A stretch of DNA of 64,000 bases from an uncultured Actinomycetes bacterium (GTDB lineage Bacteria; Actinomycetota; Thermoleophilia; UBA2241). The stretch lies in the NCBI GenBank assembly GCA_963767005.1, contig CAVYCN010000004.1, positions 320,001 to 384,000 of the forward strand, in the 5' to 3' direction. The translations under genes were made by a program, and so were the position numbers. The notes beneath the pieces were generated by a model, which had not been told where the DNA came from, made no database searches, and worked only from the letters and a program-made list of their open reading frames with translations. Every line of letters begins with the position of its first letter. Position 1 is the first letter of the stretch. This document shows positions 36,548-64,000 of this stretch, in pieces.

Positions 36548-36583
36548 CGGGGCGAGGCGACCGCGCGTCGCGCGGGTGACGCG

Positions 36584-37966: not shown

Positions 37967-37982
37967 ACCGGCTCAGGCGAAG

Positions 37983-38022
37983 GGCGCGGGCGCCGGCGGC
38001 CAGGGTCGCCGGCGCCCGCGCC
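37983..38022 (+). other. Long intra-operon hairpin before the corrinoid gene
   Basis: GGCGCGGGCGCCGGCGGCC...GTCGCCGGCGCCCGCGCC. Confidence 0.55.
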
Positions 38023-38081
38023 GCGACAGACAGACGACTACGAACGCGACGAGAGATCGCTTTGACACGAAGGAGGACCTG

Positions 38082-38732
38082 GTGAGCGACGAACTCTACG
38101 CAAAGATGGCCCAGGCGGTGATCGACGGCGAAGACGACAGCGCCGCCGCCTTGGCCCAGCAGGGCCTCGACGCCGGCCTCAGTGCGGCCGACATCCTGGA
38201 CAAGGGCTTCGTCAAGGGCATCGAGACCGTCGGCGAGCTGTTCGGCAAGGGCGAGTTCTTCCTGCCCGAGCTGGTCCAGGGGGCCGAGGCCATGAAGGCC
38301 GCGGTGAAGGTCCTGCAGCCCGCCCTGGATGCCTCCAAGGAGGGCCGCAAGGCGACCGGCATCGCGGTCGCCGGCACGGTGGCCGGCGACATCCACGAGA
38401 TCGGCAAGACGATCGTCTGCTCCATGCTCAGCGCGGCCGGCTTTGAGGTCACCGACGTGGGCTGCGACGTGGCCCCCGAGACCTTCGTCGCCACCTGCCA
38501 GTCCGTCAAGCCCGACCTGCTGCTGCTCAGTGCCCTGCTGACCACCACCATGCCCAACCAGCAAAAGACGATCGAGGCCCTGAAGGCCGCCGGTCTGCGC
38601 GAGTCGATCAAGGTGATGATCGGCGGCGCCCCGACGACGCGCGCCTGGGCCGATGAGATCGGCGCCGACGGCTACGCCGAGGACGCCATCGAGGCCGTGA
38701 GTGCCGCCAAGGGCCTGCTCGGCGTGGCCTGA
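38082..38732 (+). CDS. Methyltransferase cognate corrinoid (B12-binding) protein
   Basis: GE.FLPEL...AEAM, GTV.GDIHEIGK, LSALLTTTM, IGGAP.....A..IGADGY; AAGGAGG RBS before GTG. Confidence 0.94.
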   Translation: MSDELYAKMAQAVIDGEDDSAAALAQQGLDAGLSAADILDKGFVKGIETVGELFGKGEFFLPELVQGAEAMKAAVKVLQPALDASKEGRKATGIAVAGTVAGDIHEIGKTIVCSMLSAAGFEVTDVGCDVAPETFVATCQSVKPDLLLLSALLTTTMPNQQKTIEALKAAGLRESIKVMIGGAPTTRAWADEIGADGYAEDAIEAVSAAKGLLGVA

Positions 38733-38901
38733 GCCGACAGCCGGCTCACCCGCTTTTCGTCGCCCACAGCGACGGACCCGGTGAGGGCGGGGGCGGGCGG
38801 CGCGCACGTGCGCGCCGCCCGCCCCCGCCGTCTTCGTGCCGCCGGCCCGGCGTGGCTCGGCGCGAGCATTGTCGGCGGCGGCGGCGTAGACTGCACTGGC
38901 C

Positions 38902-40170
38902 ATGGCCGAGCACGACGACATCAGAGCGCGCCTGCGCATCGAACCCGCCGACCTCGAGGCGGTCAACGCCTTCTTGAGCGACCCCGACAACCCCTTCGTC
39001 ACGAGCCTGCTCGAGGTCGTCGACCGGTACGGCGGCGTCGACGCGGTCAATCGCGCGGCCGACGAGGCCGGCCGCCTCGAGAACCGGCTCGCGCGCCTGC
39101 GCGAGGAGCACTCCACCTACCTTGCGGACGTCGAGTGGCTGGCCGAGCAGCGCGACGCGGGCCGCTTCGTCAAGCTGGCCGACTACCGCGACGCCGTGCT
39201 GGCCGACGCCCCGGGCGCCGCGGCGGGCGGCGACGCGAACGCCGTGACGCTCGAGATCAGCGCCCTGCAGTTCTTCCCCTGGCTGATCGCCGAGGCCCGC
39301 GAGGCGATCGAGCGCCGCGAGCTCATGCCGGGGCGCTTCATCCGCGAGCGCAACATGGCCGAGCAGTCGCGCCCCGGCGGCGACCTGCTCGCGGTGTGCG
39401 CGGCCATGCAGGTGATCGGTGCGACGCATGTCGAGAGCCTCGACACGCGCGGCATCGACGGCGCCAACCTGATGGTCGGAGTCGAGACGATCGCCGGGTA
39501 CTTCGGCGGCATCGGCGAGCCCAACGAGCACGTCCTGCGCTGGGTCGACGAGCACCTGCACTACCTCACCGAGTTCGGCGTGCGCGAGGTCCTCAACTTC
39601 AACATGGGCACCATCCTCGCGGCCTTCGTGCTGCGCAAGCTGGGCGTGCGCAACCACTTCAAGATCTCGGTCTTCATGGGCGTCGACAACCCCTGGTCGG
39701 TGCTCTGGCTGCTCATGGGCGCGCGCCTGCTGGGCGGCGGCGCCGGCGGCACGAGCCTGAGCGGCATCAACTTCTCGAACTCGGCCGACTCCGACACGCT
39801 GCGCGGTGCGTCGGCGGCGCGCGAGGCCCTGGGCCTGCGCGACGCCGTGCGCTTCGAGCACCACGTGACCGAGGCCTACAAGTCGATCGTGCGCCAGCCC
39901 TACGAGCGCCGCGCCGAGGTCGTCGAGATCGCCGCCGACGTGCCCAACATCTCGGCAGAGCACGAGGGCGGCGACCCCGCGGTCGAAGCCGGTCGCAAGC
40001 ACCGCAGCGACATCCTCGACTACTTCATCTCCGAGAACGTGATCGTCGCCGCCGGCGCCATGGAGGCGCTGCAGCGCAACTACTTGGATAAGCACGCCGC
40101 GCTCAACCACACCGCCGCCGACCTCATCCGGGCCGGCATCGGGGTCAAGCCGGCGAGCCTGTTGCACTAG
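38902..40170 (+). CDS. Uncharacterised 422-aa soluble enzyme-like protein
   Basis: Long ORF with strong GC3 bias; polar motifs ESLDTRG.DG.N, FKISVFMG.DN, RFEHH.TE, A.HEG; family not recognised. Confidence 0.8.
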   Translation: MAEHDDIRARLRIEPADLEAVNAFLSDPDNPFVTSLLEVVDRYGGVDAVNRAADEAGRLENRLARLREEHSTYLADVEWLAEQRDAGRFVKLADYRDAVLADAPGAAAGGDANAVTLEISALQFFPWLIAEAREAIERRELMPGRFIRERNMAEQSRPGGDLLAVCAAMQVIGATHVESLDTRGIDGANLMVGVETIAGYFGGIGEPNEHVLRWVDEHLHYLTEFGVREVLNFNMGTILAAFVLRKLGVRNHFKISVFMGVDNPWSVLWLLMGARLLGGGAGGTSLSGINFSNSADSDTLRGASAAREALGLRDAVRFEHHVTEAYKSIVRQPYERRAEVVEIAADVPNISAEHEGGDPAVEAGRKHRSDILDYFISENVIVAAGAMEALQRNYLDKHAALNHTAADLIRAGIGVKPASLLH

Positions 40171-43783: not shown

Positions 43784-43931
43784 CTCGGTCGCTGCCGGGC
43801 GTCGACGTGCGCGTGGTGGAGCGCCGACCGCACGGACAGCGCGACCACGCCTCGAGCGCAGCGGTTTTCGGCTCGGGCGCGCGGTGGTAGTGTAGCCGGC
43901 GGTAGCAACCAGATAAGCAAGCTCGAACGAC

Positions 43932-44081
43932 GGTCGCGCGAGAGCTCGCGGCGCCCCCTTTGCAGGGTGCGCCGGGCGAGCGCCGAAGGGGCAAGGCGAG
44001 CAGGTCCGCCGAATCTCTCAGGCAAGCGGAGCGCAGACCCGACGAGCCCCTGGAGCGCGTGCGGCGCACCGTCGACAGGGC
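43932..44081 (+). ncRNA. Glycine riboswitch: one full aptamer plus a 3' reduced (ghost) aptamer
   Basis: GAGAG...CGCCGAAGGGGCAA...AATCTCTCAGGCAAGCGGA; then CCCTGGAG...CACCG..GACAGGG; directly upstream of gcvH; -10-like TAGTGT at 43888. Confidence 0.88.
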
Positions 44082-44201
44082 CCGAATGGCGGCCTGTCGG
44101 ACGACCCAATCGAGGTGACGGCGACCGGTGCGCGCTGCTTGTGGCTTCGGCCAGGACGACCCCCCGTCCGCCACCTCCCACAGAAAGCAAGGAGGGGGAC
44201 G

Positions 44202-44594
44202 GTGGCCGACGAGAGCTATCCCGATGATCTGAAGTACTTCAAGGAGCACGACTGGGTGCGGGTCGCCGGCGACGAGGCGACCTTCGGCATCACCTGGTGG
44301 GCCCAGGACGCGCTCGGCGACATGGTCTACGCGAGCCTGCCCGACGCGGGCGCCGCGGTCACGGCCGGACAGCCCTACGGCGAGCTCGAGTCGGTCAAGT
44401 CGGTGGCCGAGATCTACGCGCCGGTGAGCGGCCAGGTGGTGGCCGCCAACGACGCCCTCGTGGCCGACCCCGCCCTGGTGAACGCCGATCCCTACGGCGA
44501 CGGCTGGCTCATCCGTGTGCGCCTGTCCGACCCCGCAGAGCTCGACGGACTGATGGACGCGGCCGCCTACAGGGAGCTGCTGGCGACGGCCTGA
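44202..44594 (+). CDS. gcvH: Glycine cleavage system H protein
   Basis: YP.DL.Y..EH.W, GIT..AQ..LGD, lipoyl motif ESVKSV, N.DPYG.GW. Confidence 0.95.
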   Translation: MADESYPDDLKYFKEHDWVRVAGDEATFGITWWAQDALGDMVYASLPDAGAAVTAGQPYGELESVKSVAEIYAPVSGQVVAANDALVADPALVNADPYGDGWLIRVRLSDPAELDGLMDAAAYRELLATA

Positions 44595-44634
44595 CGCCGG
44601 CCGGGCGGCCGCGAGACGAGGGAGGTACGCGCGC

Positions 44635-45994
<1,360 letters not shown>

Positions 45995-46002
<8 letters not shown>

Positions 46003-47521
46003 GATCCCGATCGCCGCCACACCGGCCGCCACCGCCTTGCACACCATCTTCGAGAAGTCGCGGCCCGGGCGCCGCGCCTTCAGTCTGCCCGACGCCGGTC
46101 TGCCGTCGACCCCGGCCGGCGAGCTCCTGCCCGGCGTCGCCCTGCGGGCGCGGCCGGCACGCCTGCCCGAGATCGCCGAGGTCGACCTGGTGCGCCACTT
46201 CGTCGAGCTGTCGTCGCGCGACTTCGGCGTCGACAAGGGCACCTATCCGCTGGGCTCGTGCACCATGAAGTACAACCCGAAGATCAATGAGCGCGTGGCC
46301 GCGCTCGAGGGCCTGCGCGGCCTGCACCCCTACGAGCCCGAGGAGCTCGTGCAGGGCGCGCTCGAGCTCATGGACACGCTCAGCCGCTGGCTCGCCGAGG
46401 TGGCCGGCCTGGCCCGCGCCACGCTGCAGCCGGCGGCCGGCGCCCACGGCGAGCTCACCGGCCTGCTGCTCGTGCGGGCCTACCACGACGACCGCGGCGA
46501 CGGTCGCCGCGTCGTGCTCATCCCCGACACGGCGCACGGCACCAACCCGGCCTCCGTCGTAATGGCCGGCTACCAGCCCGTCACGGTGTCGAGCGACGCG
46601 CGCGGCGGCATCGACCTCGAGGCCGTGCGCTCCCTGGTGACCGAGCGCGGCGCCGAGATCGCCTGCCTCATGCTCACCAACCCCAACACCCTGGGGCTGT
46701 TCGAGGCCGACATCGTCGCGGTCGCGCGCCTCGTCCACGATGCCGGTGGGCTGCTCTACTACGACGGCGCCAACTCGAACGCCGTGCTGGGGCGCTCGCG
46801 GCCCGGCGACATGGGCTTCGATATCGTCCACCTGAACACGCACAAGACGTTCTCGACGCCGCACGGCGGCGGCGGCCCGGGGGCCGGACCGCTCATCGTG
46901 CGCGACATCCTCGAGCCCTACCTGCCGGTGCCGGTGCTGCGCAAGACCGGAGAGCACGCCTTCACGCTCGACTACGACCGGCCCAGGTCGATCGGCAAGG
47001 TGCGTTCCTTCTACGGCAACTTCGGCGTGCTCGTGCGGGCCTACGCCTACATCCGCGCGCTCGGCGCCGAGGGCCTGCGCGAGGTGAGCGAGGCGGCGGT
47101 GCTCAACGCGACCTACGTCCTGGCCGGCATCCGCGACCTGTTCGAGGTGCCCTACGACCGGCCCGTCATGCACGAGTTCGTGGTGTCCGCCGAGCCCCTG
47201 CGCGCCCACGGCGTGCGCGCCCTCGACGTGGCCAAGCGCCTGCTCGATCACGGCGTCCACCCGCCGACCACCTACTTTCCGCTGATCGTCAAAGAGGCGC
47301 TCATGGTCGAGCCGACCGAGACCGAGTCGAAGGCCGACCTCGACGCCTTCGTCGCCGCGGTGCGCGCGGTCGTCGACGAGGCCCGCACCCGGCCCGAGCT
47401 GCTCACGGCGGCGCCGTACACCATGCCGGTCGGGCGTCTCGACGAGGTCGGCGCCGCGCGCAACCCCGTGCTGCGTCAGCGCTTTGCCGACGACCAGCCG
47501 GTGACGGTGACGCCCCAGTGA
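45995..47521 (+). CDS. gcvPB: Glycine dehydrogenase (decarboxylating) subunit B
   Basis: YPLGSCTMKYNP, QPAAGAHGE, AHGTNPAS, HLN.HKTFSTPHGGGGPG, EPTETES. Confidence 0.95.
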
Positions 47522-48279
47522 GCGTGACCGCCGCCGGTCTGACCAGCTTCGTCGAGCTGCCGCTGCGGGCCGACCCGGGGGCCGCCCAGATGCTGTGCGA
47601 CGAGCGCCTGCTCGCCGGGGCCGCGGAGCTCACGGTCCGGCGCTACGTGTGGGACCCGCCCGCGGTGTCGCTCGGCAAGTTCCAGGAGCTCGACGACGGC
47701 GCCCGCCGGGTGCTCGCGGCCGTCGGGATCGACGTGGTGCGCCGTCCGAGCGGTGGCCGTCTCGTGCTGCACGGCGCGGGCTTCGAGTGGTCGTTCGCCG
47801 TGGTCTGGCCGGCCGGCGCGCTGCCGTACGGCACGCAGGCGCCGTACCGTCTCGTGAGCGCCGCGATGGCCGGCGCCCTGACCGACCTCGGCGTGGCCGT
47901 CGACGCCACGCGCGAAGCGCCCTACACACGCTCCGCCCTGTGCTTCGCGAGCGCCCTCCGGCATGATCTGCTGGTGGCCGGCGACAAGACGGTCGCCGTG
48001 GCCCAGGCCGTGCGCCGCGGACGTGCGCTCGTCCACGGCAGTGTGCTCGAACGGCGTCCGCCGGCGGTGCTCGTCAGGGCGGTCGAGAAGGCCTGCGGCG
48101 AGCCCTGGCGCGGCGAGGGGATCGCGGGCGGCGGCTCCGTCCCCGACGCGGCCGCGCTCTGGGCGGCGTTCGTCGGCCGCCTCGTGGTGACCGGTGCCGG
48201 CGACGCCGGCTGGGCCGGGCTCGACCACGACGTGGTCGGGGTGGGCGTCCCGCCAGGTTCGAGAAGGGAGATGCGCTGA
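47518..48279 (+). CDS. Lipoate-protein ligase/octanoyltransferase (LipM/LplA-like)
   Basis: M..DE.LL, Y.W.PP.VSLG..Q, VVRRPSGG..VLH, CF, G.K....AQ, HGS. Confidence 0.8.
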   Translation: MSVTAAGLTSFVELPLRADPGAAQMLCDERLLAGAAELTVRRYVWDPPAVSLGKFQELDDGARRVLAAVGIDVVRRPSGGRLVLHGAGFEWSFAVVWPAGALPYGTQAPYRLVSAAMAGALTDLGVAVDATREAPYTRSALCFASALRHDLLVAGDKTVAVAQAVRRGRALVHGSVLERRPPAVLVRAVEKACGEPWRGEGIAGGGSVPDAAALWAAFVGRLVVTGAGDAGWAGLDHDVVGVGVPPGSRREMR

Positions 48280-49664
48280 TGACGTCGATCGTGGTGCTGG
48301 GCGGTGGCCCGGCCGGCTATGTGGCGGCGCTGCGCGCCGCCCAGCTCGGGGCGGGTGTGACGCTCGTCGAGGCGCGCGAGGTCGGCGGCACCTGCCTGAA
48401 CCGTGGCTGCATCCCGACGAAGGCGCTGGTGGCCGCCACCGAGCGCCTGCGCGCGGCGCGCGGCGCGGCCGAGTTCGGCGTGCTGATCGGCGAGCCGACA
48501 GTCGACCTGTCGGCACTGCTTGCCCGCAAGGACACCGTGACGGCGCAGCAGCGTGCCGGCGTCGAGCACCTGCTCAAGGGGCGCAAGGTCGCGGTGGTCG
48601 CGGGGGCCGGACGCCTGCTCGACGCGCACACCGTGCACGTCGAGCAGGCGTCCGGCGAGCGCCGCGAGCTTGCGCCCGACGCGGTGATCGTCGCCACCGG
48701 CTCGCGACCGGCGCTGCCGGCGGTCTTCGACGTGGCCGACCCGCGAGTCGTGACGAGCGACGGCCTGCTCGCGCTGCGCGAGCTGCCCGAGAGCCTCGCG
48801 ATCGTGGGCGGCGGCGTGATCGGCTGCGAGTTCGCGTCGATCTACGCCGAGCTCGGCACGCGCGTGACGGTCGTCGAGATGCTCGACCGCCTGCTGCCCC
48901 TCGAGGACCGCCGCGCCTCGGCGGCGCTCACGCGGGCCTTCGCGGGCGCCGGCATCCAGAGCCGCGTCAAGACGCGGGTCGAGCGACTCGACCTGTCGCA
49001 GCCGGGGCAGGTGAGTCTGGAGCTGAGTGAGGGCGCGGCCGTCGAGGCGAGCCTCGTGCTCGTCAGCATCGGCCGCGCCCCGCTGAGCCGGGGGATCGGG
49101 CTCGAAGAGGCCGGCGTCGAGCTCGACGGGCAGGGCTTCATCGTGACCGATCGCCGTCAGCGCACCTCGCTTGCCGGCGTGTTCGCCGCCGGCGACGTCG
49201 CCGGGCCACCGCTGCTGGCCCACTGGGCCTACCGCCAGGGCGCCGTGGCGGCCGAGAACGCGGTCACCGGCGCGGCCGTCGAGGTCGACGCCCGTTTCGT
49301 GCCCAACTGCATCTTCAGCCACCCCGAGGTGGCGAGCTTCGGCACGAGCGAAGACCAGGCCAGGGCGGAGAACCTGCCCATCGAGGTGGCGCAGGTACGT
49401 TTCAACGCCAACTCTAAAGCCGTGATAGAGGGTGAGGCCGAAGGCTACATCCGCATCATCACGCGCGCCGACGACGGTCGCGTGATCGGCGCGAGCCTCG
49501 TCGGGCCGCGCGTGACCGAGCTCGTGCACGAGCTCGTCCTGGCGGCCCGGGCCGGCCTCACGCTCGCCGACGTGGCCGACACGATCCACGCGCACCCGAC
49601 CCTCGCCGAGGCCGTGGGCGAAGCCGCCCTCGGCGGCGTCGGTCGCGGCATGCACACGCTGTGA
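48279..49664 (+). CDS. lpdA: Dihydrolipoamide dehydrogenase
   Basis: GGGPAGY, GGTCLN.GCIPTK, GGGVIG.E, HAHPTL.E. Confidence 0.95.
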   Translation: MTSIVVLGGGPAGYVAALRAAQLGAGVTLVEAREVGGTCLNRGCIPTKALVAATERLRAARGAAEFGVLIGEPTVDLSALLARKDTVTAQQRAGVEHLLKGRKVAVVAGAGRLLDAHTVHVEQASGERRELAPDAVIVATGSRPALPAVFDVADPRVVTSDGLLALRELPESLAIVGGGVIGCEFASIYAELGTRVTVVEMLDRLLPLEDRRASAALTRAFAGAGIQSRVKTRVERLDLSQPGQVSLELSEGAAVEASLVLVSIGRAPLSRGIGLEEAGVELDGQGFIVTDRRQRTSLAGVFAAGDVAGPPLLAHWAYRQGAVAAENAVTGAAVEVDARFVPNCIFSHPEVASFGTSEDQARAENLPIEVAQVRFNANSKAVIEGEAEGYIRIITRADDGRVIGASLVGPRVTELVHELVLAARAGLTLADVADTIHAHPTLAEAVGEAALGGVGRGMHTL

Positions 49665-50638
49665 CCGGCGCCCCCGAGCGCCCGGCCGCCGCGGGCGGCA
49701 ACCTGGACGGTCGCGCCGGCGAGGCAGGCGGCGGCGCCAGCGAGGCAGGCGGCGGCGACAGGATCGGTGGTGGTGCCGGCAAGCCGGCCTGGCTGCGCGT
49801 GCGGTTGCCGCGGGCGGCGCCCTTCAGGGCGACCGCCGCCCTCCTCGACGAGCTCGAGCTCCACACCGTGTGCGAGGCGGCGCGCTGTCCCAACCGCGGC
49901 GAGTGCTTCGGGCTCGGCACGGCGACCTTCCTCATCCTCGGCGAGGCCTGCACGCGCGCGTGCGGCTTCTGCTCCATCGGCCGCGCGCCCTTGCGGCCGG
50001 CGCCGCCCGACCCCGACGAGCCGCGCCGCGTGGCGCGCGCCGCCGCCCGTCTCGGTCTGTCGCACGTGGTCGTGACGAGCGTCACGCGCGACGACCTGGG
50101 CGACGGCGGCGCGGCGCACTACGCGGCGACGATCGCCGCGGTGCGCGAGGAACTGCCGGAGACGACCGTCGAGGTCCTCGTGCCCGACTTTGACGGCGAC
50201 CCGGCGGCGCTTGCCACCGTCCTCGCGGCGCGGCCGCGGGTGCTCAATCACAACCTCGAGACCGTGCCGCGCCTGTACGGCAGGGTGCGGCCGGGCGCGT
50301 CGTATCGGCGCTCGCTCGACCTGCTGCGGGCCGCCACGTCGGCCGGCGGCGCCGGCGGTCGGCTGCTGGTGAAGAGCGGGCTCATGCTCGGCCTGGGCGA
50401 GAACGGAGACGAGGTCGCCGCCGTCCTGGCCGACTGCGCCGCGGCCGGCGTCGGCCTCGTCACGGTCGGCCAGTACCTGCGGCCGGCCGACGGCTGCCTG
50501 CCGGCCGCGCGGTACGTGCCGCCCGACGAGTTCGCCGTTCTCGTGCCGCTCGGCGAGAGTCTCGGGCTGCGGGTCGAGGCGGCCCCCTTCGTGCGCTCCT
50601 CGTACCGCGCCGCCGCGGCGCTTGCCGGCTGCGCTTGA
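49661..50638 (+). CDS. lipA: Lipoyl synthase
   Basis: CEAARCPNRGEC, CTRACGFC, NHNLETV, GQYL.P, VRSSY. Confidence 0.95.
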   Translation: MTGAPERPAAAGGNLDGRAGEAGGGASEAGGGDRIGGGAGKPAWLRVRLPRAAPFRATAALLDELELHTVCEAARCPNRGECFGLGTATFLILGEACTRACGFCSIGRAPLRPAPPDPDEPRRVARAAARLGLSHVVVTSVTRDDLGDGGAAHYAATIAAVREELPETTVEVLVPDFDGDPAALATVLAARPRVLNHNLETVPRLYGRVRPGASYRRSLDLLRAATSAGGAGGRLLVKSGLMLGLGENGDEVAAVLADCAAAGVGLVTVGQYLRPADGCLPAARYVPPDEFAVLVPLGESLGLRVEAAPFVRSSYRAAAALAGCA

Positions 50639-51992: not shown

Positions 51993-53020
<1,028 letters not shown>

Positions 53021-53024
<4 letters not shown>

Positions 53025-54445
53025 GCCCGGAGCGCGCCAAGGCGGGCACGGCCGGCGACGAGCCGGCCGAGGCCGCCGCGCTGCGCGGCCTCGCCGCCGT
53101 CGACCAGGTCCTGCGTGAGCCGGCCGTCGCCGCGCTCCTCGAGCGCTATCCCCGCGACGTCGTCGTGCGCGCCGTGCGCACCGTGATCGACCGTCTGCGG
53201 CGCGAGATCATCGAGGGCGGGCGAGAGGCCGACGCGGCCGGCCTCACGCCCGCCCATCTCGCGCCCTGGGTCGAGCAGCTCGTCGAGACGGCCGTCTCCC
53301 CGTCGCTGCGCCGCGTGATCAACGCGACCGGCGTTGTCGTCCACACCAACCTCGGGCGCTCCGTGCTGCCGGCCGAGGCGCTCGCCGCGGTCGTCACCGC
53401 CGCCGGCTCGTACACCGACCTCGAGATCGACCTCGCCGGCGGCGAGCGGGCCACCCGGCAGCGCCACGTGCGCGACGTGCTGTGCGCCCTCACGGGCGCC
53501 GCCGACGCGCTCGTCGTCAACAACAACGCCGCGGCGGTGCTGCTCGCCCTGGCGGCGACTTGCCGCGACGGCGAGGTGATCGTGTCGCGTGGCGAGCTCG
53601 TCGAGATCGGCGACGGGTTTCGCATCCCCGACATCCTCGCCGAGAGCGGCGCCCGCCTGGTCGAGGTGGGCACCACCAACCGCACCTACCTGCGCGACGT
53701 CGAGCGTGCCTGGACCGAGCGCACGCGCGCCGTGCTGCGCGTGCACACGAGCAACTACCGCATCGTGGGCTTCACCACGCAACCGGCGCTCGACGAGCTC
53801 GTGGGCTTCGCCCACGAGCGCGACGCGCTGGTGATCGACGATCTGGGCAGCGGCGCCCTGGCCGACCTGCCGCTGCTCGCCGAGGAGCCGGCGGCGCGCG
53901 AGTCGCTGCGCCTCGGCGTCGATCTCGTCACGTTCAGCGGCGACAAGCTGCTCGGCGGGCCGCAGGCCGGCATCGTGCTCGGCACGGCCGCCGCCGTCGA
54001 GCGTCTGCGCACCCACCCCCTGGCGCGCGCCGTGCGCATCGACAAGCTCAATCTGGCCGCGCTCGACGCGCTGCTGCGTCTCTACCTCGACCCCGCGGCC
54101 GCCGTCGAGCGCGTGCCGACGCTCGCCCTCCTCGTCCAGGCCCGCGCCGCGCTCGTGGCGCGCGCCGAGCGGCTGCGTGCCGCGCTCGGCGACGGCGAGG
54201 TCGTCGACGCCGTGGGGCGCGCCGGCGGCGGTGCGCTGCCGCTGGCCGAGGTCGCGAGCGCGGCCGTCGCCCTGGCCCCGGCACGGCTCGCTGTCGGTGA
54301 GCTGGCCGCCCGCCTGCGGCGCGGGCGCCCGGCGGTGCTCGGCTACGTCCACGACGGCCGGGTCCTGCTCGACGTGCTCGCCGTGCGCGACGACGAGGTC
54401 GACGCGCTCGCCGCGGCCGTGGGCGCCGCCCTGACCGCGGGGTAG
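53021..54445 (+). CDS. selA: L-seryl-tRNA(Sec) selenium transferase
   Basis: VINATGVV.HTNLGR, VVNNNAAA, SRGELVEIG..FRIPD, VGTTNRT, FSGDKLLGGPQAG. Confidence 0.96.
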
Positions 54446-54450
54446 GAGCC

Positions 54451-56409
<1,959 letters not shown>

Positions 56410-56477: not shown

Positions 56478-57536
56478 TTACGGCCGGCCGGAGGCGAAGT
56501 AGTCGCCGCTGAAGGCCGAGTCGTAGCGCACGTCGACGCCGGTGTAGGGCGCGTCGATCATGGAGCCGCCACCCACGTAGATGCCGACGTGGTGGATGCC
56601 GCCGGCCGAGGGGCCAAAGAAGACGAGGTCGCCGGGCTGCTCGGAGCCGTGCGCGACGGGCGTGCAGTCGGCGTACTGCATGGCGGCGTTGTGTGGCAGG
56701 GAGATGCCGACCTGCGCGTAGCAGTACATGACGAGACCCGAGCAGTCGAAGCCGGACGGGCTTGCGCCGCCCCACACGTAGGGCACGCCGAGGTAGCGCT
56801 GGGCGATCCCCACGATGCCGCCGTGCGCGCCGGCCGACGAGGTCGTGCCGCCCGGGTTCTGCTGGACGTGCGAGGCCGACTCGCGCGCGGCGGCGGCACG
56901 CTCGGCAGCCAGCTTGGCGGCGCGCGCCTGAGCGGCCTCCATGGCCTTGATCTGCTTCTGCACGCCGGCGAGCTTGCTCTGACGGTAGCTCAGGTCGGAG
57001 TAGATCTGCTGTTTGGTCGCGGCCCGCTCCGCGACGAGCGCCGTCGCCTGCTTGCCCTCGACCAGCAGCGCCTTGCGACGCTCGCTGATCTGCTTCTTGA
57101 GGGCGGTGATCGTGCTGACCGTCTGACTCTCGTTCTGGTCGACCTGCCGCATGGCGTCGACCTCGGTCACGAGCTGGTCGAACGACTTGGTCGACAGCAG
57201 CACGTCGAGCATGTCGGCCTTGTCCTGCTTGTAGAGCGACACGACGCGCTGAGTGAGGGTCTGGCGGGCGACGAGCAGGTTGTAGCGCGCGACGATGAGC
57301 TGGTGCTCGTTCGTGCTGATCCGGGCGCGGACGTCGGTGAGCTTCTGGTTGGCCGCGTCGTAGGCCTCGACCGCGATCTCCATCTTGGTGTTCAGGGCCT
57401 GGACCTCGGTGGCCAGGTTCTGAGCCTGCGCCTTCTTCTGGGCGATCGTGGTCGCCGACACCGAGCCGGGGATGAGCGAGATGGCCAGCATGGCCGTGAA
57501 GAGAAGCAGGGCGAGGGTGAGAAGCCTGCGCTGCAT
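56478..57536 (-). CDS. Secreted coiled-coil plus NlpC/P60 peptidoglycan endopeptidase (CwlO/RipA-like)
   Basis: Signal peptide, coiled coil, LGVPYVWGG..P.GFDCSG, PGDLVFF, HVGIY.G; AAGGAGG RBS. Confidence 0.93.
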   Translation of the reverse strand: MQRRLLTLALLLFTAMLAISLIPGSVSATTIAQKKAQAQNLATEVQALNTKMEIAVEAYDAANQKLTDVRARISTNEHQLIVARYNLLVARQTLTQRVVSLYKQDKADMLDVLLSTKSFDQLVTEVDAMRQVDQNESQTVSTITALKKQISERRKALLVEGKQATALVAERAATKQQIYSDLSYRQSKLAGVQKQIKAMEAAQARAAKLAAERAAAARESASHVQQNPGGTTSSAGAHGGIVGIAQRYLGVPYVWGGASPSGFDCSGLVMYCYAQVGISLPHNAAMQYADCTPVAHGSEQPGDLVFFGPSAGGIHHVGIYVGGGSMIDAPYTGVDVRYDSAFSGDYFASGRP

Positions 57537-57658: not shown

Positions 57659-57688
57659 ACCTTACCACAGAGCTGCCGCCACTTTCAA
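57659..57688 (-). promoter_or_regulatory. Promoter of the NlpC/P60 gene
   Basis: TTGAAA-N18-TAAGGT with TG extension on the minus strand. Confidence 0.6.
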
Positions 57689-57936
57689 GCCGGCCCGTCC
57701 GGCCGGCACGTCCTTGATCGACCGGCGCGACCGCTGCCTGAAGCCCGCCGTGCCGGCCGCGGACGCCTCGGAGGCGCCTGCCAGAAGAAGTTCGCCCTCT
57801 GCTTCCCGTCACCTTCACGGCGCCGCCGGAGTCCCGTGCTCGTGGTCCGGGCGCCGCCGAGGTGATAGCGTGGCTAGGCCCGCCCGGGCGGGCGGGCCGC
57901 GACCCGGGCGGTCCGCGCAGGGAGTGTGAAGGGGGC

Positions 57937-58734
57937 ATGACGATGGAGCGCAGGGGACGGCTGGCCGGCAAGGTGGCGCTGATCACCGGGGTGGCCAAGC
58001 AGGACGGGATCGGCTTCGCCACGGCGCGGGTCTTCCTCGAGGAGGAGGCCGCCGGCATCGCCGTGGTCGACATCGCGGACGCCGTGCACGACTGCGCCGC
58101 CAGCCTGGGCGAGGGATGCACCGGGCACACCGCCGACCTCACAGCGGCCGCCGACGTCCAGCGCGTGGTCGACGAGGCGCTCGCCGCCCACGGGCGCATC
58201 GACGTCCTGGTCAACTGCGCTGGCATGGTCGTCTTCGGTCAGGACGAGGACTTCGCCGCCTTCCAGGACCTGAGCGAGCGGCAGTGGGACTTCGGCATCG
58301 CCATCAACCTGAAGAGCCAGTTCCTGGTGACGCGCGCCGTGGTGCCGCACATGATCGCGCGCGGCTCCGGCCGTATCGTGAACGTCTCGTCGGTCACCGG
58401 CCCGGTGGTCGCCAACCCCGAAGAGTCGGCGTACTGCGCGGCCAAGGCCGGCGTGGTGGGCCTTACCCGCGGCCTCGCGCTCGACGTCGCCAAGCACGGC
58501 ATCACGGTGAACGCCGTGGGACCGGGCTGGGTGGCCACGGGCTCGCAGGTCGAGGGCGAGGACGTGGGCGGCGACAACACGCCGCTCAAGCGCTCGGCCC
58601 GGCCCGACGAGATCGGCCGGCTGATCTGCTTCCTGGGCTCCGACGACGCGAGCTACATCACCGGGCAGCTCGTCGTGATCGACGGCGGCAACACGATCCA
58701 GGAGTACAAGGGCCCGAGCGAGCTCTACTACTAA
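57937..58734 (+). CDS. Short-chain dehydrogenase/reductase
   Basis: TG.....GIG, VNCAG, NVSS, YCAAK, VNAVGPG, ITGQ...DGG. Confidence 0.93.
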   Translation: MTMERRGRLAGKVALITGVAKQDGIGFATARVFLEEEAAGIAVVDIADAVHDCAASLGEGCTGHTADLTAAADVQRVVDEALAAHGRIDVLVNCAGMVVFGQDEDFAAFQDLSERQWDFGIAINLKSQFLVTRAVVPHMIARGSGRIVNVSSVTGPVVANPEESAYCAAKAGVVGLTRGLALDVAKHGITVNAVGPGWVATGSQVEGEDVGGDNTPLKRSARPDEIGRLICFLGSDDASYITGQLVVIDGGNTIQEYKGPSELYY

Positions 58735-58755
58735 GCGGCGCGGGGGGGATGGAAC

Positions 58756-59556
58756 GTGGCGGCGGAGTCCGAGTTCGACAACAGGGTCGTGCTGGTCACC
58801 GGCGCGGCGGGCGGCATCGGCAAGGCCGTCGCGCGGCGCTTCCTGGCTGCCGGGGCCCAGGTGTTCGCCGCCGACCTGCGGGCCGAGCCCCTGGCGGCCG
58901 CCGTCGCAGAGTTGTCGGCGTCGCCAGGCACGGCGATCTACCCCATCGAGGCCGACGTCACCGTCGTCGCCGACTGCGAGCGCATGGTGCGGGTCGCGGT
59001 GGCCGGCGGCGGGCGCCTCGACGTGCTCGTCAACAGCGCCGGCGTGTGGGTCGAGGGCCCGAGCGAGACCATGACCGAGGCCGACTGGGACGGCGTGGTC
59101 GACGTCAACCTCAAGGGCACCTTCTTCTGCTGCCGCTACGCCCTGCCGGAGCTGCGCAAGACGCAGGGCTGCATCGTCAACGTCTCGTCGGACGCCGGCG
59201 TGGTGGGCACGCCCGAGACGGCCGTCTACACGGCCTCCAAGGGCGGCGTCAGCCTGCTCACCAAAGCGCTCGCGCTCGAGCTCGCGCCCGACCTCGTGCG
59301 CGTGAACGCGGTCTGTCCCGGCGACGTGCAGACTCCCATGCTGCAGTACCAGGCCGACAACTTCGGCGGCGGCGACCCCGAGGGGTACCTGCGACGGCTG
59401 CTCGCCTCGTACCCGCAGGGCGAGCGTGCCCGCTTCATCAGGCCCGACGAGGTGGCGGAACTCATCTGCTACCTCGCCGGCGAGAAGGCGGCGCCGATCA
59501 CCGGCGCCCTCCTGTCGATCGACTTCGGGTCGAGCGCCGGCTACACGTATCAGTGA
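58756..59556 (+). CDS. Short-chain dehydrogenase/reductase
   Basis: TGAAGGIG, VNSAG, NVSS, YTASKG, VNAVCPG.V.TPM. Confidence 0.93.
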   Translation: MAAESEFDNRVVLVTGAAGGIGKAVARRFLAAGAQVFAADLRAEPLAAAVAELSASPGTAIYPIEADVTVVADCERMVRVAVAGGGRLDVLVNSAGVWVEGPSETMTEADWDGVVDVNLKGTFFCCRYALPELRKTQGCIVNVSSDAGVVGTPETAVYTASKGGVSLLTKALALELAPDLVRVNAVCPGDVQTPMLQYQADNFGGGDPEGYLRRLLASYPQGERARFIRPDEVAELICYLAGEKAAPITGALLSIDFGSSAGYTYQ

Positions 59557-59606
59557 CCGCGTCCGCGCGACCCGGCAAACCGCAAGGGAAGGAGTCCGAG
59601 TCCCCC

Positions 59607-61016
59607 ATGGCCGAGAGACCGTTCATCCACCCGTACATCCCCAACGCTGTGCCGGCCACCAAAGCGGCCATGTTGCGGGAGATCGGGCTCGACGGCGTCG
59701 AGGAGATCTACGCCGAGATCCCCGACCGCCTGCGCTTTCGGGGGCGGCTCGACATCCCCGAGCCGATCCTCGCCGAGCGCGACCTGCGGCGGCACGTCAA
59801 GGGCCTGCTCGACCGCAACACGAGCTGTGAGGACAACCTCAACTTCTGCGGCGCCGGCTGCTGGCAGCACTACGTGCCGGCCGTCGTCGACGAGGTCGTG
59901 AACAGGGCCGAGTTCCTGTCGGCGTACTGCGGCGGCAGCTACTCCGACCTGGGCAAATACCAGGCGCGCTTCGAGTTCAACAGCCAGCTCGGTGAGCTGC
60001 TCGACCTGGACGGCGTCGCCAACCCGATCTACGACTGGGGCGACGTCGCCGGGCGCAGCTTCCGCATGGCCAGGCGCATCACGGGCCGCCGCCGGGTGCT
60101 CGTGCCGCAGGCGATGAGCCCCATGCGCCTGGCCGAGGCGCGTACGCTCTGTCAGCCCGAGGTGATGCCCACCCACGTCGCGATCGAGCAGGTCGCCTAC
60201 GAACCGGCCAGCGGCCGGCTCGACCTCGCCGACATGCGCGCGAAGATGGGCGACGACGTCGCCGCCGTCTATTGGGAGAGCCCCGGTTACCTCGGTACGA
60301 TCGAGGACCAGGGCGCCGAGATCGTGCGCATCGCGCACGAGCAGGGCGCTCTCGCCATCGCCGGCGTCGACCCGATCACGCTGGGCGTGCTCGCGCCGCC
60401 CGGTGCGATCGGCGCCGACATCGCCTGCGGCGACATCCAGTGCCTGGGCGTGCACATGCACGCGGGCGCCGGCTGCTCGGGCTTCATCGCCTTCCGCGAC
60501 GACGACCCGGTGTTCGCGCAGGAGTGCCCGCTCGAGCTCTACACGCTGCTCGAGACCGAGACACCCGGCGAGTGGCAGGTCGCCGAGGCCCTGGCCGAGC
60601 GCACGAGCTACGGCGCGCGCGACCAGGGCAAGGACTGGGTCGGCACCGCCTCGGGCCTGTGGACGATCGCCGCGGCCGTGTACATGACGGTCATGGGTCC
60701 CCAGGGCTTCAAGGAGGTCGGCGAGACCTGCATCGCACGCTCGCACTACGCCGCGAAGCGCCTCGCCGAGCTGCCCGGTGTGACGATCAAGCTCTCGCCC
60801 GCCTTCTTCAAGGAGTTCGTGGTCTGCTTCGACGGCACCGGCAAGACGGTCGCCGAGATCAACCACAGGCTGCTCGACCACGCCGTCTTTGGCGGCAAGG
60901 ACCTCTCGGCCGAGTTCCCCGAGCTCGGGCAGAGCGCCCTGTACTGCGTCACCGAGTATCACAGCGAGGCCGACATCGTGGAGCTCGTGATCGCCCTCAA
61001 GGAGGTGCTGCAATGA
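59607..61016 (+). CDS. Divergent GcvPA-like (glycine dehydrogenase subunit A paralog)
   Basis: HPYIPN, ML..IG, NF.GAG...HYVPAV, RAEF..AY, G.L.PPG..GADI..G, FFKEFV, CVTE; AAGGAG RBS before ATG 59607. Confidence 0.88.
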   Translation: MAERPFIHPYIPNAVPATKAAMLREIGLDGVEEIYAEIPDRLRFRGRLDIPEPILAERDLRRHVKGLLDRNTSCEDNLNFCGAGCWQHYVPAVVDEVVNRAEFLSAYCGGSYSDLGKYQARFEFNSQLGELLDLDGVANPIYDWGDVAGRSFRMARRITGRRRVLVPQAMSPMRLAEARTLCQPEVMPTHVAIEQVAYEPASGRLDLADMRAKMGDDVAAVYWESPGYLGTIEDQGAEIVRIAHEQGALAIAGVDPITLGVLAPPGAIGADIACGDIQCLGVHMHAGAGCSGFIAFRDDDPVFAQECPLELYTLLETETPGEWQVAEALAERTSYGARDQGKDWVGTASGLWTIAAAVYMTVMGPQGFKEVGETCIARSHYAAKRLAELPGVTIKLSPAFFKEFVVCFDGTGKTVAEINHRLLDHAVFGGKDLSAEFPELGQSALYCVTEYHSEADIVELVIALKEVLQ

Positions 61017-62632
61017 GCGACCGCGTGACCGACGACGTCGCCGCCAAGCTCGAGCGCCTGGGCCGCCTGCGCCGCGACGGCGGCGCCCTGCGCGACTACC
61101 ACGCGCCGCGCTGGAACGAGCCCCTCGTCATGGAGCAGAGCGTGCCCGGCGAGCGCGGCGTGCTCGTGCCGCAGCCCGAGGCCGAGGTCAGGGCCGAGGT
61201 CGGCGACCCGCTGCAGTACGTGCCGGCCGCGACGCGCCGCCGGCAGGCGCCCGACCTGCCCGAGATCTCCCAGCACCAGGCCCTGCGTCACTACCTGCGG
61301 CTGTCGCAGATGACGCTCGGCATGGACCTCGGTTCCGACATCTCCGAGGGCACGTGCACGATGAAGTACAGCCCCAGGATGCATGAGGAGCTCGTGCGCT
61401 ACCACAAGCACGCCGAGCTGCACCCCTGGCAGGACGAGGACTCGCTGCAGGGCCTGCTGCAGATCGTGTACGACTGCGGCGAGTACCTGAAGGCGATCTC
61501 GGGCATGGACGCCATCACCCTGCAGCCGGGCGGCGGCTCGCACGCCGTCTACACCAACGCCTGCGTCATGCGCGAGTACTACCGCGAGCGTGGCGAGCTC
61601 GACCAGCGCACCGAGATGATCACCACGATCTTCTCGCACCCGTGCGACGCGGCGACACCCTCGGTGGCTGGCTTCAAGGTCATCACCGTCATGCCCGACG
61701 AGAACGGCTACCCCGACCTCGAGGCCTTCAAGGCGGCCGTGTCCGAGCGCACGGTCGGCTGCATGATCACGAACCCCGAGGACACCGGCATCTACAACCC
61801 GCAGATCGACAAGTACGTCGAGGTGCTGCACGGGGCCGGCGCCCTGGCCTTCACCGACCAGGCCAACGCCAACGGCATCCTGGGCTTTGCCCGCGCCCGC
61901 GACGCCGGCTTCGACGCCTGTCATTTCAACCTGCACAAGACCTTCTCGAGCCCCCACGGCTGCGAGGGTCCGGCGACCGGCGCCTACATGGTGACCGACG
62001 AGCTCGCCAAGTACCTGCCCGTGCCGGTGGTCACCAGGGTCGGCGAGCGCTACCACCTCGACTACGACCGGCCGCAGTCGATCGGCCGGGTGCGCGGCTT
62101 CCTGGGCAACTGGATGGGCGTGCTGCGCGCCTACGCCTGGATCCGCAGCATGGGCCCCGACGGCCTGCGCGAGGTGGCCGAGATCAGTGTGCTCAACAAC
62201 AACTACCTCGACCGCCTGCTCATGGGCGTGCGCGGCGTGAGCCGTCCGTACGCCGAGGGCCATCGCCGGCTCGACCAGGTGCGCTACAGCCTCGAGACGC
62301 TCAAAGAGGAGACGGGCGTCGGCACCGAGGAGGTGCGCGACCGCATGGTCGACTTCGGCATCCAGAGCTACTGGATGAGCCACCACCCCTGGGTGGTGGC
62401 GGAGCCCTTCACGCCGGAGCCCTGCGAGACCTATTCGAAGGCCGACCTCGACGAGTGGGCCGCCGTCATCAAGAAGGCGAGTGACGAGGCCTACGCCGAC
62501 GCCGGCACGGTCAAGTCGGCGCCCCACGCCTCGAGCTCGGGACGCATGAAGGGGCTCGAGGCCCTCGAGGACCCCGGGCGCTGGGCCCTGACCTGGCGGG
62601 CGTATCGCCGCAAGAACGGCCTGGCAGGGTAA
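61013..62632 (+). CDS. Divergent GcvPB-like (glycine dehydrogenase subunit B paralog)
   Basis: LPE.S....RHY..LSQ, G.CTMKY.P, QPGGG, ITNP, PLP-Lys motif HFNLHKTFSSPHG, VLNNNY, EP.E. Confidence 0.9.
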   Translation: MSDRVTDDVAAKLERLGRLRRDGGALRDYHAPRWNEPLVMEQSVPGERGVLVPQPEAEVRAEVGDPLQYVPAATRRRQAPDLPEISQHQALRHYLRLSQMTLGMDLGSDISEGTCTMKYSPRMHEELVRYHKHAELHPWQDEDSLQGLLQIVYDCGEYLKAISGMDAITLQPGGGSHAVYTNACVMREYYRERGELDQRTEMITTIFSHPCDAATPSVAGFKVITVMPDENGYPDLEAFKAAVSERTVGCMITNPEDTGIYNPQIDKYVEVLHGAGALAFTDQANANGILGFARARDAGFDACHFNLHKTFSSPHGCEGPATGAYMVTDELAKYLPVPVVTRVGERYHLDYDRPQSIGRVRGFLGNWMGVLRAYAWIRSMGPDGLREVAEISVLNNNYLDRLLMGVRGVSRPYAEGHRRLDQVRYSLETLKEETGVGTEEVRDRMVDFGIQSYWMSHHPWVVAEPFTPEPCETYSKADLDEWAAVIKKASDEAYADAGTVKSAPHASSSGRMKGLEALEDPGRWALTWRAYRRKNGLAG

Positions 62633-62676: not shown

Positions 62677-62922
62677 ATGTGCATCGTGATGGGGCCGATC
62701 CGGATGGTCAGGGGACTGATCGCCGCGATGCTGAAGATCGTCGCGACAATCGTCCTCGTGGCGATCGCGGTGGTCGCGCTGGTCCCGCTCGGCATCGCCC
62801 TGGCGGCGGTGCTCTACATCAAGCGCGACGCCTGGACGCTGCCCGCCTACCGCTGGGCGCGCGACACGAGCGGCCGCCTCGGCTTCACGCCCTGGGGCCC
62901 GGGCGACGGCGGAGCAGCCTAG
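62677..62922 (+). CDS. Small hypothetical membrane protein
   Basis: Long hydrophobic segment, GC3 bias, AAGGGG upstream. Confidence 0.55.
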   Translation: MCIVMGPIRMVRGLIAAMLKIVATIVLVAIAVVALVPLGIALAAVLYIKRDAWTLPAYRWARDTSGRLGFTPWGPGDGGAA

Positions 62923-63047
62923 GCCACGTCGCGTCGTCGTCGACCGGCGGTCGCCGCGGACCGGCGGGGGCGGCGAGGGCTGACCTTCAGCCCTCGCCGC
63001 CCCTGCTCGTCGTGCGCCGGGCGCGCGCATCCGTCAGAATGGAGCGC

Positions 63048-63605
63048 ATGAGCTCGCGAGGTTCGAACAGAGGTAAGTCGCGCGGACGGCGCCGTGTGGC
63101 GCCGGTCGCGGCAGCGGCCGGACGCGGCCTGGCCGGGGTCGCCCGCGTCGTGCTGCTGGCGATCATGGCGGCCGCGGTCGTGCAGGCGCTTGCCATCCTC
63201 GTCACATTCGCCCTACGGCGCTCGTCGTTCTCGTCGTTTCCCACGGCGCAGGCCATCGTGGCGTTCATCCTGGCGGCCGTCGCCGTGCTCGTCATGCTGG
63301 CGCTCGCCGTGAACTCGTCGTACCTGCCCGACCGCGTCGTGCCGCGGCGCTACCTGGGCGTGGCGTTCGGCGTCGTCTGGGTCGTCGGGGCGGCGGCGAT
63401 CGTCGTCGGCCTCGTGGGGTCGTTCCGTCTCGGCGCCTACGTCGCGGTCGAGATCCTGCCGGCGGCCGTGGGCTTCGTCCTCATGGGCCTGGTCACGCCC
63501 GGCCTGTACCGCCGCCCGGGTGAGGACGCAGGCGCCGGCGGCGGCGACAGCACCGCGCCGTCCCCGCGCGGCCGCCAGCGCCGCGGCGGGCGGGCGAAGC
63601 GGTGA
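63048..63605 (+). CDS. Hypothetical 4-TM membrane protein
   Basis: Four hydrophobic helices; CAGAAT 7 nt before ATG 63048 (ATG 63039 is an alternative). Confidence 0.7.
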   Translation: MSSRGSNRGKSRGRRRVAPVAAAAGRGLAGVARVVLLAIMAAAVVQALAILVTFALRRSSFSSFPTAQAIVAFILAAVAVLVMLALAVNSSYLPDRVVPRRYLGVAFGVVWVVGAAAIVVGLVGSFRLGAYVAVEILPAAVGFVLMGLVTPGLYRRPGEDAGAGGGDSTAPSPRGRQRRGGRAKR

Positions 63606-64000
63606 CCGGCGTGACCGACGTTCCGGGCGCGCCGCCGCCGGCGGCCGAACACCCCTCGCCGCCGCCCGCCGAGCCCCCCGCGCCGCCGGCCGCCGCACCA
63701 CGATCGCAGCCGACCACCGAGCCACCTCGACCATCGGCCGCTGAGCCGGCGCCGTCGCCAAGCGACACCGGCACCCGTCGGTCGCGCCGGGTGGTGAAGA
63801 CGACCTACCGGGTGGAGAAGCCGGTCAAGGCCGGTCCGCTCGCCGTCGCCGGCAAGGTCGTCGTCGCCATCGTGTTCGCCGGCACCGTGGCGCTCGCCGC
63901 CTACCGCGCCGACCGGCCGGCGGCGACGCCGCACGACCACGTGCCCGCCGTCCTCGTGACCGGCGGCTTCGTGCTCGTCGCCCTGCTCGCGGTGGTGCTC
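63602..64000 (+). CDS. Hypothetical membrane protein with a Pro-rich N-terminus, 3'-truncated
   Basis: GTGA overlap with the previous stop; frame open to the window end; TM segments after 63830. Confidence 0.65.
   Translation, partial: MTGVTDVPGAPPPAAEHPSPPPAEPPAPPAAAPRSQPTTEPPRPSAAEPAPSPSDTGTRRSRRVVKTTYRVEKPVKAGPLAVAGKVVVAIVFAGTVALAAYRADRPAATPHDHVPAVLVTGGFVLVALLAVVL

Follow-up and report, generated by a model that had tools for sequence, protein, structure and literature searches.

Glycine Decarboxylase Paralogues, Probably Lipoyl-Independent, with a Kinase-like Partner

A 64,000-nucleotide stretch of contig CAVYCN010000004.1 from an uncultured Thermoleophilia bacterium (positions 320,001 to 384,000, forward strand), here called the window, contains two pairs of genes for the alpha and beta subunits of the glycine-cleaving P-protein (GcvPA and GcvPB). 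One pair belongs to a canonical glycine-cleavage operon, and the other, named here PA* and PB*, is remodelled and follows two short-chain dehydrogenases/reductases (SDRs). PA*/PB* represent a monophyletic sister family of the canonical P-protein, present in bacteria and archaea, and are very probably lipoyl-independent and non-glycine enzymes. They have the P-protein fold and the residues for pyridoxal 5′-phosphate (PLP), and with a neighbouring kinase-like protein they likely serve in catabolism, as an ammonia/phospho-lyase that acts on a small amino alcohol. The particular reaction considered here, the elimination of a phosphorylated vicinal amino alcohol to an aldehyde and NH3, is given a little less than an even chance. 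An earlier reading of the DNA letters (the sequence-only reading) had proposed a non-glycine cleavage system, with a paralogous decarboxylase for another amino acid or amino-sugar acid.

A Sister Family of the P-Protein with a Rebuilt Pocket

PA* (59607–61016, forward strand) encodes a GcvPA-like alpha subunit of 469 amino acids without the catalytic lysine, and PB* (61013–62632, forward strand) encodes a GcvPB-like beta subunit of 539 amino acids with the PLP-binding Lys309, His209, and Asp282. The identity to the canonical gcvPA/gcvPB pair of the same window (44635–47521) is 33% for the alpha and 37% for the beta subunit. The remodelled pair carries the motifs YCGGSYSDLG, RTSYGARDQGKDWVGT, ISEGTCTMK, HPCDAAT, and HFNLHKTFSSPHGCEGP, and the canonical pair YTPYQAERSQG, REQHIRRENATSNIC, YPLGSCTMK, HGTNPAS, and HGGGGP. 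All the motifs quoted in the sequence-only reading, remodelled and canonical, are present in the translations of the two pairs.

Conservation was computed over 122 unique alpha and 143 unique beta sequences of the family. On the PLP side, K309, which the same reading had regarded as kept, H209, and D282 are found in 143/143 beta sequences, and H308, T116, and G175 complete the set of cofactor residues that are invariant family-wide. The motifs YTPYQ.E.SQG, REQHIRR..A.SNIC, PLGSCTMK, HG(T/S)NPA, DGAN, HGGGGP, and HPPT, kept in most of the canonical copies sampled, are rewritten throughout the family. The alpha subunit has gained D114 and G346 as near-invariant residues, and the beta subunit E/D256, D257, Q283, R419, R424, S456, H457, and T467, among which R419, R424, S456, and H457 (each 142/143) form a new cationic cluster. 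Because the changes are near-invariant over all these sequences, they do not represent drift, and a degenerate pseudogene is ruled out as well by the intact open reading frames (ORFs).

The S5 table of Farris 2020 (PMC7259800) flags active-site positions of the P-protein and docking-predicted positions of its interface with the H protein, and these were mapped by eye through alignments. Seven of the 11 active-site positions flagged there are kept (Y107, T116, G175, H209, T253, H308, and H315). In the remaining four, the second tyrosine of YTPY is lost, C382 is replaced by G346, T894 by M455, and W897 by H458; the position of M455 is occupied by threonine in 71/143 family sequences. Five of the six docking-predicted interface positions were mappable (Q366, T367, I372, R373, and K376), and the canonical subunit has Q, T, I, R, N there, against A, E, G, A, Q for PA*, which has lost the QT..IR docking residues. 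The AlphaFold model of PB* has a predicted local distance difference test score (pLDDT) of 70, and its top Foldseek matches are 9A73, 1WYU, and 1WYT, with template modelling scores of 0.62–0.64 on the query. The two subunits presumably assemble as in the Thermus P-protein.

PA* scores 405 against the GcvPA cut-off of 364 (NF001696) and PB* scores 518 against the GcvPB cut-off of 441 (NF003346), and the only NCBIfam models matched are of the GcvP and NifS types. Both subunits lie above equivalog cut-offs, and automatic naming as glycine dehydrogenase is therefore expected, as the sequence-only reading had anticipated. Among nine plasmid records from cultured bacteria and a haloarchaeon, which carry the family at 48–52% identity, all eight that were opened are annotated as gcvPA/gcvPB.

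The phylogeny of both subunits, which had been proposed as a check of the paralogue, separates the remodelled sequences from the canonical ones. The remodelled alpha (28/28) and beta (29/29) sequences each form one clade, with a support of 100 for both in the Shimodaira–Hasegawa-like approximate likelihood ratio test (SH-aLRT). An archaeal alpha subunit tagged as remodelled by score (L219) has canonical motifs and was excluded from the alpha count. The monophyly of the canonical beta subunits is unsupported (SH-aLRT 3.3), and the PA*/PB* family may therefore stem from within the canonical split P-proteins.

The closest named relatives come from Thermoleophilia, which points to this class for the host, and the 120 best protein matches (60–100% identity) have the same rewritten motifs. 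A scan of GTDB, with one genome per species and two family motifs, gave at least 600 stretches, with about 1,900 estimated. The best 80 of them, which were kept, include Thermoleophilia, Bacillota, Chloroflexota, Acidobacteriota, Desulfobacterales, Spirochaetales, Bathyarchaeia, Brockarchaeota, and Thermoplasmata. Two or three remodelled copies occur in several of the host's relatives, which suggests substrate diversification, and the subclades of PA*/PB* probably differ in substrate. In one relative, two different remodelled pairs stand in tandem with an SDR ahead of each (L090:8112–17224). No functional study of the family was found in the open-access literature; subscription papers and bioRxiv supplements, outside this scope, could hold one.

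Presence and Absence of Lipoyl Partners

The PA*/PB* family does not appear to need the H, L, and T proteins of glycine cleavage. Of 165 loci, 1 has an H-like gene in the vicinity of PB*, outside the operon. Canonical PB and GcvH are both missing from 5/50 carrier genomes, with one more doubtful, and these are metagenome-assembled genomes of unstated completeness. A cleaner test is provided by 301 genomes of the Dorea family (Lachnospiraceae), for which a minimum completeness of 95% was requested and of which 11 contain PB*. Full-length GcvH was not found in 6 of the 10 Lachnospiraceae carriers tested, which gave at most partial matches (E ~1e-4); one of these GcvH-less carriers is represented by a 3.95-Mb contig that holds two copies of PB*. 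Five of the six were examined further: GcvT and LplA were each found in 0/5, LipA over the cut-off in 0/5, and the kinase in 5/5. The single BPL-domain protein in each of these carriers is read as BirA.

The two halves of the earlier proposal fare differently. The non-glycine paralogue, misannotated and with a conserved SDR linkage, is supported. A cleavage system in its lipoyl-H version is unlikely, because carriers exist without detected H, T, LplA, or LipA.

The Kinase-like Partner

The steadiest partner of the family is a kinase-like gene, ahead of the SDRs. When the ORFs of 81 loci were clustered, 64 of the loci had the kinase-like protein and 52 had SDRs, and the gene is present in 73/87 P-anchored loci of 12 kb or more. 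From the kinase side, PA*/PB* are found in 44/80 kinase-anchored metagenome loci, many of the other 36 being short. In the genome studied here, the gene (C4:384250–385446, equal to L081:7251–8447, forward strand; 398 amino acids, ATP-NAD-kinase family) lies 250 bp past the end of the window, beyond three short hydrophobic ORFs. After removal of the close Thermoleophilia relatives, the distances between PB* sequences and between kinase sequences correlate over 58 loci with a rho of 0.73 (0/999 permutations), a value inflated by kinship. The four nearest neighbours of the cassette, which span three phyla, are identical in the PB* and kinase trees.

The GGDGT motif is intact in 167/167 members of the kinase family. 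The structural model (pLDDT 90) has an N-domain of the type found in NAD kinase (NADK) and diacylglycerol kinase (DAGK). Ordered by Z-score, its structure matches are a solute-binding protein (11.9, the top match), DgkB (11.0), NADK (10.9), and the sphingosine kinase SphK1 (9.7). Searches of the kinase profile against PDB sequences returned nothing below E 0.06, Foldseek with the model returned nothing below E 1e-3, and one relative has a weak match to Pfam NAD_kinase_C. The gene product is graded as a probable kinase, since the matches of the model to DAGK, NADK, and SphK1 are confined to the N-domain and its C-domain is unmatched.

Homologues of the kinase also occur away from PA*/PB*. An example is Peptoclostridium acidaminophilum (EAL2_RS12605/12610, L204:8659–10735), where the kinase gene overlaps that of a 328-amino-acid HisC/CobD-like PLP enzyme, which is below both cut-offs. 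In four further loci (L182:1833–2384, L198:4703–5254, L200:3090–3686, and L207:4436–4975), the homologue directly follows or overlaps epmC. EpmC hydroxylates a lysine of EF-P, and this adjacency possibly marks a link to hydroxylysine or is mere synteny. The kinase family is also joined to PdxB (4-phosphoerythronate dehydrogenase) in 792-amino-acid fusions (P0241 and P0242) and to a methyltransferase domain in P0244/P0245. Apparent kinase–aminotransferase fusions (P0243 and P0246) contain out-of-frame text, and P0246 also a PA*-like tail; they were read as operon frameshift artefacts and rejected. Two Lachnospiraceae copies of PA*/PB* (L114 and L117), possibly a kinase-independent subclade, have neither a kinase nor an SDR next to them and share their operon with genes for a peptide ABC transporter and an RraA-like aldolase.

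Short-Chain Dehydrogenases and Other Neighbours

SDR1 (57937–58734) and SDR2 (58756–59556), both on the forward strand, are classical SDRs that precede PA* on the same strand, in agreement with the sequence-only reading, which had placed two SDRs ahead of the pair. Neighbour genes were counted in 103 long loci and, as a control, in 245 bins of the bacterium's own genome; the loci were also the source of the queries. Of the long loci, 66/103 have an SDR within 7 kb, against 10/245 control bins. The SDR linkage emphasised in that reading is therefore conserved, but the kinase is a steadier partner, and the cassette SDRs of different loci fall in several clades of the tree.

SDR1 has UcpA as its best NCBIfam match, below the cut-off. 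Its orthologues form a clade of 17 sequences (SH-aLRT 99.9) from Thermoleophilia, Firmicutes, Phycisphaerae, Desulfobacterales, and Rhodococcus. They are placed inside a UcpA-like clade that is marked by SSVTGP together with a C-terminal GGxx(L/I)xE (GGNTIQE in SDR1), a motif pair that only SDR1 has among the 15 SDR-like matches in the genome. SDR2 belongs to another clade, whose 18 members come from 17 Thermoleophilia-type loci and one Phycisphaerae locus. A cassette SDR from Gemmobacter joins the UcpA-like clade of SDR1 (SH-aLRT 84.9), shares the motif pair as SS(I/V)TG and GGxx(L/I)xE, and is closest to PDB 6CI9/6CI8 (227 bits), probably the aminopropanol dehydrogenase of M. smegmatis. From these resemblances, SDR1 is a candidate aminoketone reductase or amino-alcohol dehydrogenase.

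The Gemmobacter and Rhodococcus cassettes consist of a regulator, an APC permease, an SDR, the kinase, the PLP pair, an acyl-CoA synthetase, and either an amine oxidase or an M20 deacylase, and they parallel the aminopropanol cluster described in PMC6620236. M20/amidohydrolase deacylase genes are found near 18/103 loci and in 7/245 control bins. Saccharopine-dehydrogenase-like genes are found near 22/103 loci, and one also lies downstream of the cassette studied here. In two Firmicutes loci (L019:4486–11553 and L023:3901–11620), a glycine/sarcosine/betaine reductase operon comes after the cassette.

Proposed Mechanism and Rival Explanations

In the proposed pathway, SDR1 and SDR2 would carry an alpha-aminoketone to the required stereoisomer of a 1-amino-2-ol and back, and the kinase would use ATP to phosphorylate the hydroxyl of the amino alcohol. 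Lys309 of PB* with PLP would then take up the primary amine, with R419, R424, S456, and H457 holding the phosphate, and an alpha,beta-elimination would give an enamine, which would hydrolyse to the aldehyde and NH3 (and inorganic phosphate). Candidate substrates would be 1-amino-2-propanol/aminoacetone, 5-hydroxylysine, 2-hydroxyputrescine or 4-amino-3-hydroxybutyrate, and amino-polyols. According to PMC8154272, fold-type-I PLP enzymes are established catalysts of 1,2-eliminations on amino alcohols, and pairs of a kinase and a PLP enzyme with phosphate elimination are represented by ETNPPL and PHYKPL. Elimination is favoured because it ends in an aldehyde and ammonia without calling for another special enzyme, in keeping with a minimal module of kinase, PA*, and PB* with an optional SDR. 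It is also favoured because a phosphate would fit the new Arg/Arg/Ser/His cluster and because the SDR points to 1-amino-2-ols. The corresponding evolutionary account, held at somewhat below even odds, is that an ancient P-protein duplicate dropped the lipoyl redox chemistry and, with an NADK/DAGK-fold kinase, became a two-step module deaminating vicinal amino alcohols to aldehydes.

Several observations weigh against these conclusions. As to the substrate, SDR1 shares only 31% identity with the Gemmobacter SDR, and 6CI9 is absent among the 60 PDB matches of SDR1 at E<=1e-30. Alcohol/aldehyde dehydrogenases, CoA transferases, or aldolases are found near 19/103 loci and in 23/245 bins, a weak signal for an aldehyde product. 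As to the kinase, no adjacent kinase gene is present in 14/87 long P-anchored loci (L114 and L117 included), and the structure matches are confined to residues 6–230 of the N-domain, the unmatched C-domain not having been searched alone. The placement of R419, R424, and H457 in the substrate pocket is predicted from alignment, the PB* model is of moderate quality, and the related genomes behind the family counts are not independent. As to lipoyl independence, about 42/50 carrier genomes have GcvH elsewhere, full-length GcvH is found in 4/10 of the Lachnospiraceae carriers, and the genome studied here has H, L, and T genes, with H in the window itself, so that PA*/PB* could here borrow H. Finally, the known phospho-lyases are class III aminotransferases, a subfamily different from that of PA*/PB*, and sphingosine-1-phosphate (S1P) lyase is the nearest structural neighbour of PB* outside the P-proteins, which favours a rival reaction.

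Retro-aldol cleavage (S1P lyase) and decarboxylation (CobD) are the other known outcomes of pairing a kinase with a PLP enzyme. In the former, an improbable reading here, the kinase would phosphorylate C1 of a 2-amino-1,3-diol, and PA*/PB* would cleave C2–C3 to phosphoethanolamine and an aldehyde. The substrates would be serinol, threoninol, an amino-sugar alcohol, or deacylated N-acyl forms, with the SDR acting as a 3-ketosphinganine reductase. An SDR, a DAGK-fold kinase, and a group II PLP lyase make up the sphingolipid pattern. S1P lyases are the first non-P-protein Foldseek matches of the PB* model (E ~1e-12, 13% identity), the N-domain of the kinase is matched by SphK1 and DgkB, all 143/143 beta sequences retain the stacking His209, and deacylases and acyl-CoA synthetases recur as neighbours. 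The fold and the stacking histidine are not diagnostic, because they are shared with the canonical P-protein; the same closeness to S1P lyase is expected of canonical P-proteins, and the fold match therefore does not discriminate. Moreover, phosphoethanolamine needs a further enzyme, and class III aminotransferase-family genes lie near only 9/103 loci.

The decarboxylase of the sequence-only reading persists in a lipoyl-free form, as an unlikely rival that the kinase does not favour: the Calpha–COOH bond of an O-phospho beta-hydroxy amino acid or an amino-sugar acid would be cleaved and the carbanion protonated. Phosphorylation of threonine followed by decarboxylation is the work of PduX and CobD. 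Decarboxylation is the ancestral chemistry of the fold, all the PLP-side residues are kept, the HisC/CobD-like enzyme of P. acidaminophilum is coupled to a kinase homologue, and Zn-dehydrogenase neighbours have threonine 3-dehydrogenase as their best match, below the cut-off. A cobamide-biosynthesis role of the PduX/CobD kind was rejected, as no cob genes are present among the annotated neighbours. The context is catabolic (transporters, deacylases, and sigma-54 activators), phosphorylation and then decarboxylation alone would leave a dead-end amine, and SDR1 resembles amino-alcohol rather than amino-acid dehydrogenases. Less probable still, the pair would act on an aminoketone or diamine by a different PLP reaction (thiolytic/retro-Claisen cleavage, transamination, or epimerisation), whose product the kinase would then phosphorylate. 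Conserved cysteines near the pocket (C317 in 110/143 and C211 in 74/143) speak for this, as do E256/D257 and D114, whose acidic side chains could bind a second amine, and one operon type has an omega-transaminase ahead of the kinase and PA*; neither cysteine is invariant, and CoA transferases are rare neighbours (3/103). The least credible reading, to which hardly any weight is given, is a divergent lipoyl-H-dependent cleavage of glycine or a close analogue with H, T, and L supplied from elsewhere. The passed equivalog cut-offs and the H, L, and T genes discussed above speak for it. Against it stand the carriers without detected H, T, LplA, and LipA, the rewriting of all the motifs near-invariant in the sampled canonical copies, and a kinase that has no place in glycine cleavage.

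The Cassette and Its Surroundings in the Window

SDR1, SDR2, PA*, and PB* are separated by 21, 50, and −4 nt, the last distance being an ATGA overlap between PA* and PB* seen in the translations. The three short hydrophobic ORFs between PB* and the kinase (62677–62922, ~63096–63605, and ~63791 to beyond the window end, forward strand) are lineage-specific spacers, and Pfam gave no match for them at 62677–64000. Upstream of SDR1, a TGATAGC(A/G)T element (57862–57871, forward strand) stands about 65 nt before the gene and is conserved in an alignment of the upstream regions of eight relatives; it is a possible −10 promoter box of SDR1. A second element conserved in relatives (CTT(G/A)ACCA..AG-like) lies at 57660–57675. 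Both, judged by their conservation, are candidate promoters or operators common to the cassette and the divergent gene at 56478–57536. The sigma-70 promoter scan returned 0 sites.

The comparator is the canonical operon at 43927–49664 (forward strand), which consists of a glycine riboswitch, gcvH, gcvPA, gcvPB, an lplA-like gene, and lpd, and is not part of the cassette. The region 43927–50638 has a single Rfam glycine aptamer match and no gcvT; both GcvT-family matches of the genome are on contig C2. The remodelled pair had been described as lacking a riboswitch and a T gene. The first is correct, as the sole Rfam glycine riboswitch (43927–44043) precedes the canonical operon; the second is true but does not distinguish the pairs, because the canonical operon is equally without gcvT. 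Between the two P pairs lie selD-selA-selB-like genes (52050–56409), as read from their translations. Two MttB-family methyltransferases, a corrinoid protein, and a 422-amino-acid protein without a Pfam or NCBIfam match occupy 35096–40170, and a further MttB lies about 9 kb past PB* (L081:14707–16170). Demethylation by these MttB-family neighbours could be a source of primary amines for the cassette.

Significance and Comparison with Known Systems

A family of about 1,900 estimated stretches, named gcvPA/gcvPB in all the annotated records opened, can give false calls of glycine cleavage or of the reductive glycine pathway. This matters for anaerobes and archaea, where carbon fixation is inferred from such calls. 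If the lyase reading is true, it would bring a new reaction to the P-protein fold, with the first P-protein-fold lyase, and the first assigned function for the widespread orphan "ATP-NAD kinase family". It would also mean that gut and sediment microbes release nitrogen by a pathway so far unrecognised, a new catabolic route in roughly a thousand bacterial and archaeal species (gut Lachnospiraceae, Bathyarchaeia, Anaerolineae, and Rhodococcus). The cultured plasmid carriers Rhodococcus jostii RHA1, with the cassette on pRHL1 at about 436.8–440.9 kb, and Paracoccus aminophilus, with it on pAMI4, make the function directly testable.

Like GcvPA/GcvPB (EC 1.4.4.2; Thermus thermophilus 1WYT/1WYU/1WYV), PA*/PB* have split alpha and beta genes, the same fold, the PLP lysine, the stacking histidine, and the pyridine-binding aspartate. 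They differ by rewriting at YTPYQ, REQHIRR, SNIC, HGTN, DGAN, HEF, and HPPT and by having a kinase and an SDR in place of H/T/L and the riboswitch. The family departs from GcvP in its pocket motifs and partners and is therefore not to be filed as GcvP, despite its P-protein fold. The cassette kinase shares the GGDGT motif and the N-domain with NAD kinase (PF01513/PF20143), but it has its own motifs GVKIHS and FGRGNQQ, and the NCBIfam NAD-kinase models gave no match to its family at E<=1e-5; the label "NAD(+)/NADH kinase" is unproven for it. The pair of sphingosine kinase and S1P lyase (SphK1 4L02; StSPL 3MAF/3MAD) has a related kinase N-domain and a related PLP fold. No DAGK C-domain was matched in the cassette kinase, and S1P lyase is a homodimer acting on lipids.

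In the aminoacetone/1-amino-2-propanol cluster and in the phospho-lyase pairs, the PLP enzyme is of the class III aminotransferase family. Both use an APH-family kinase, unlike the NADK/DAGK-fold kinase and P-protein-fold heterodimer found here, and no microcompartment shell genes were seen with the cassette. What the cassette shares with the aminopropanol cluster (RMM/AAU/Aut; Rhodococcus and M. smegmatis; PMC6620236) and with the hydroxylysine and ethanolamine pairs HYKK/PHYKPL and ETNPPL (PMC8154272) is the logic of an SDR, a small-molecule kinase, which in the cassette is a putative one, a fold-type-I PLP enzyme, and an APC permease. By analogy, the cassette is a candidate for a system that works like these clusters and pairs rather than a member of them.

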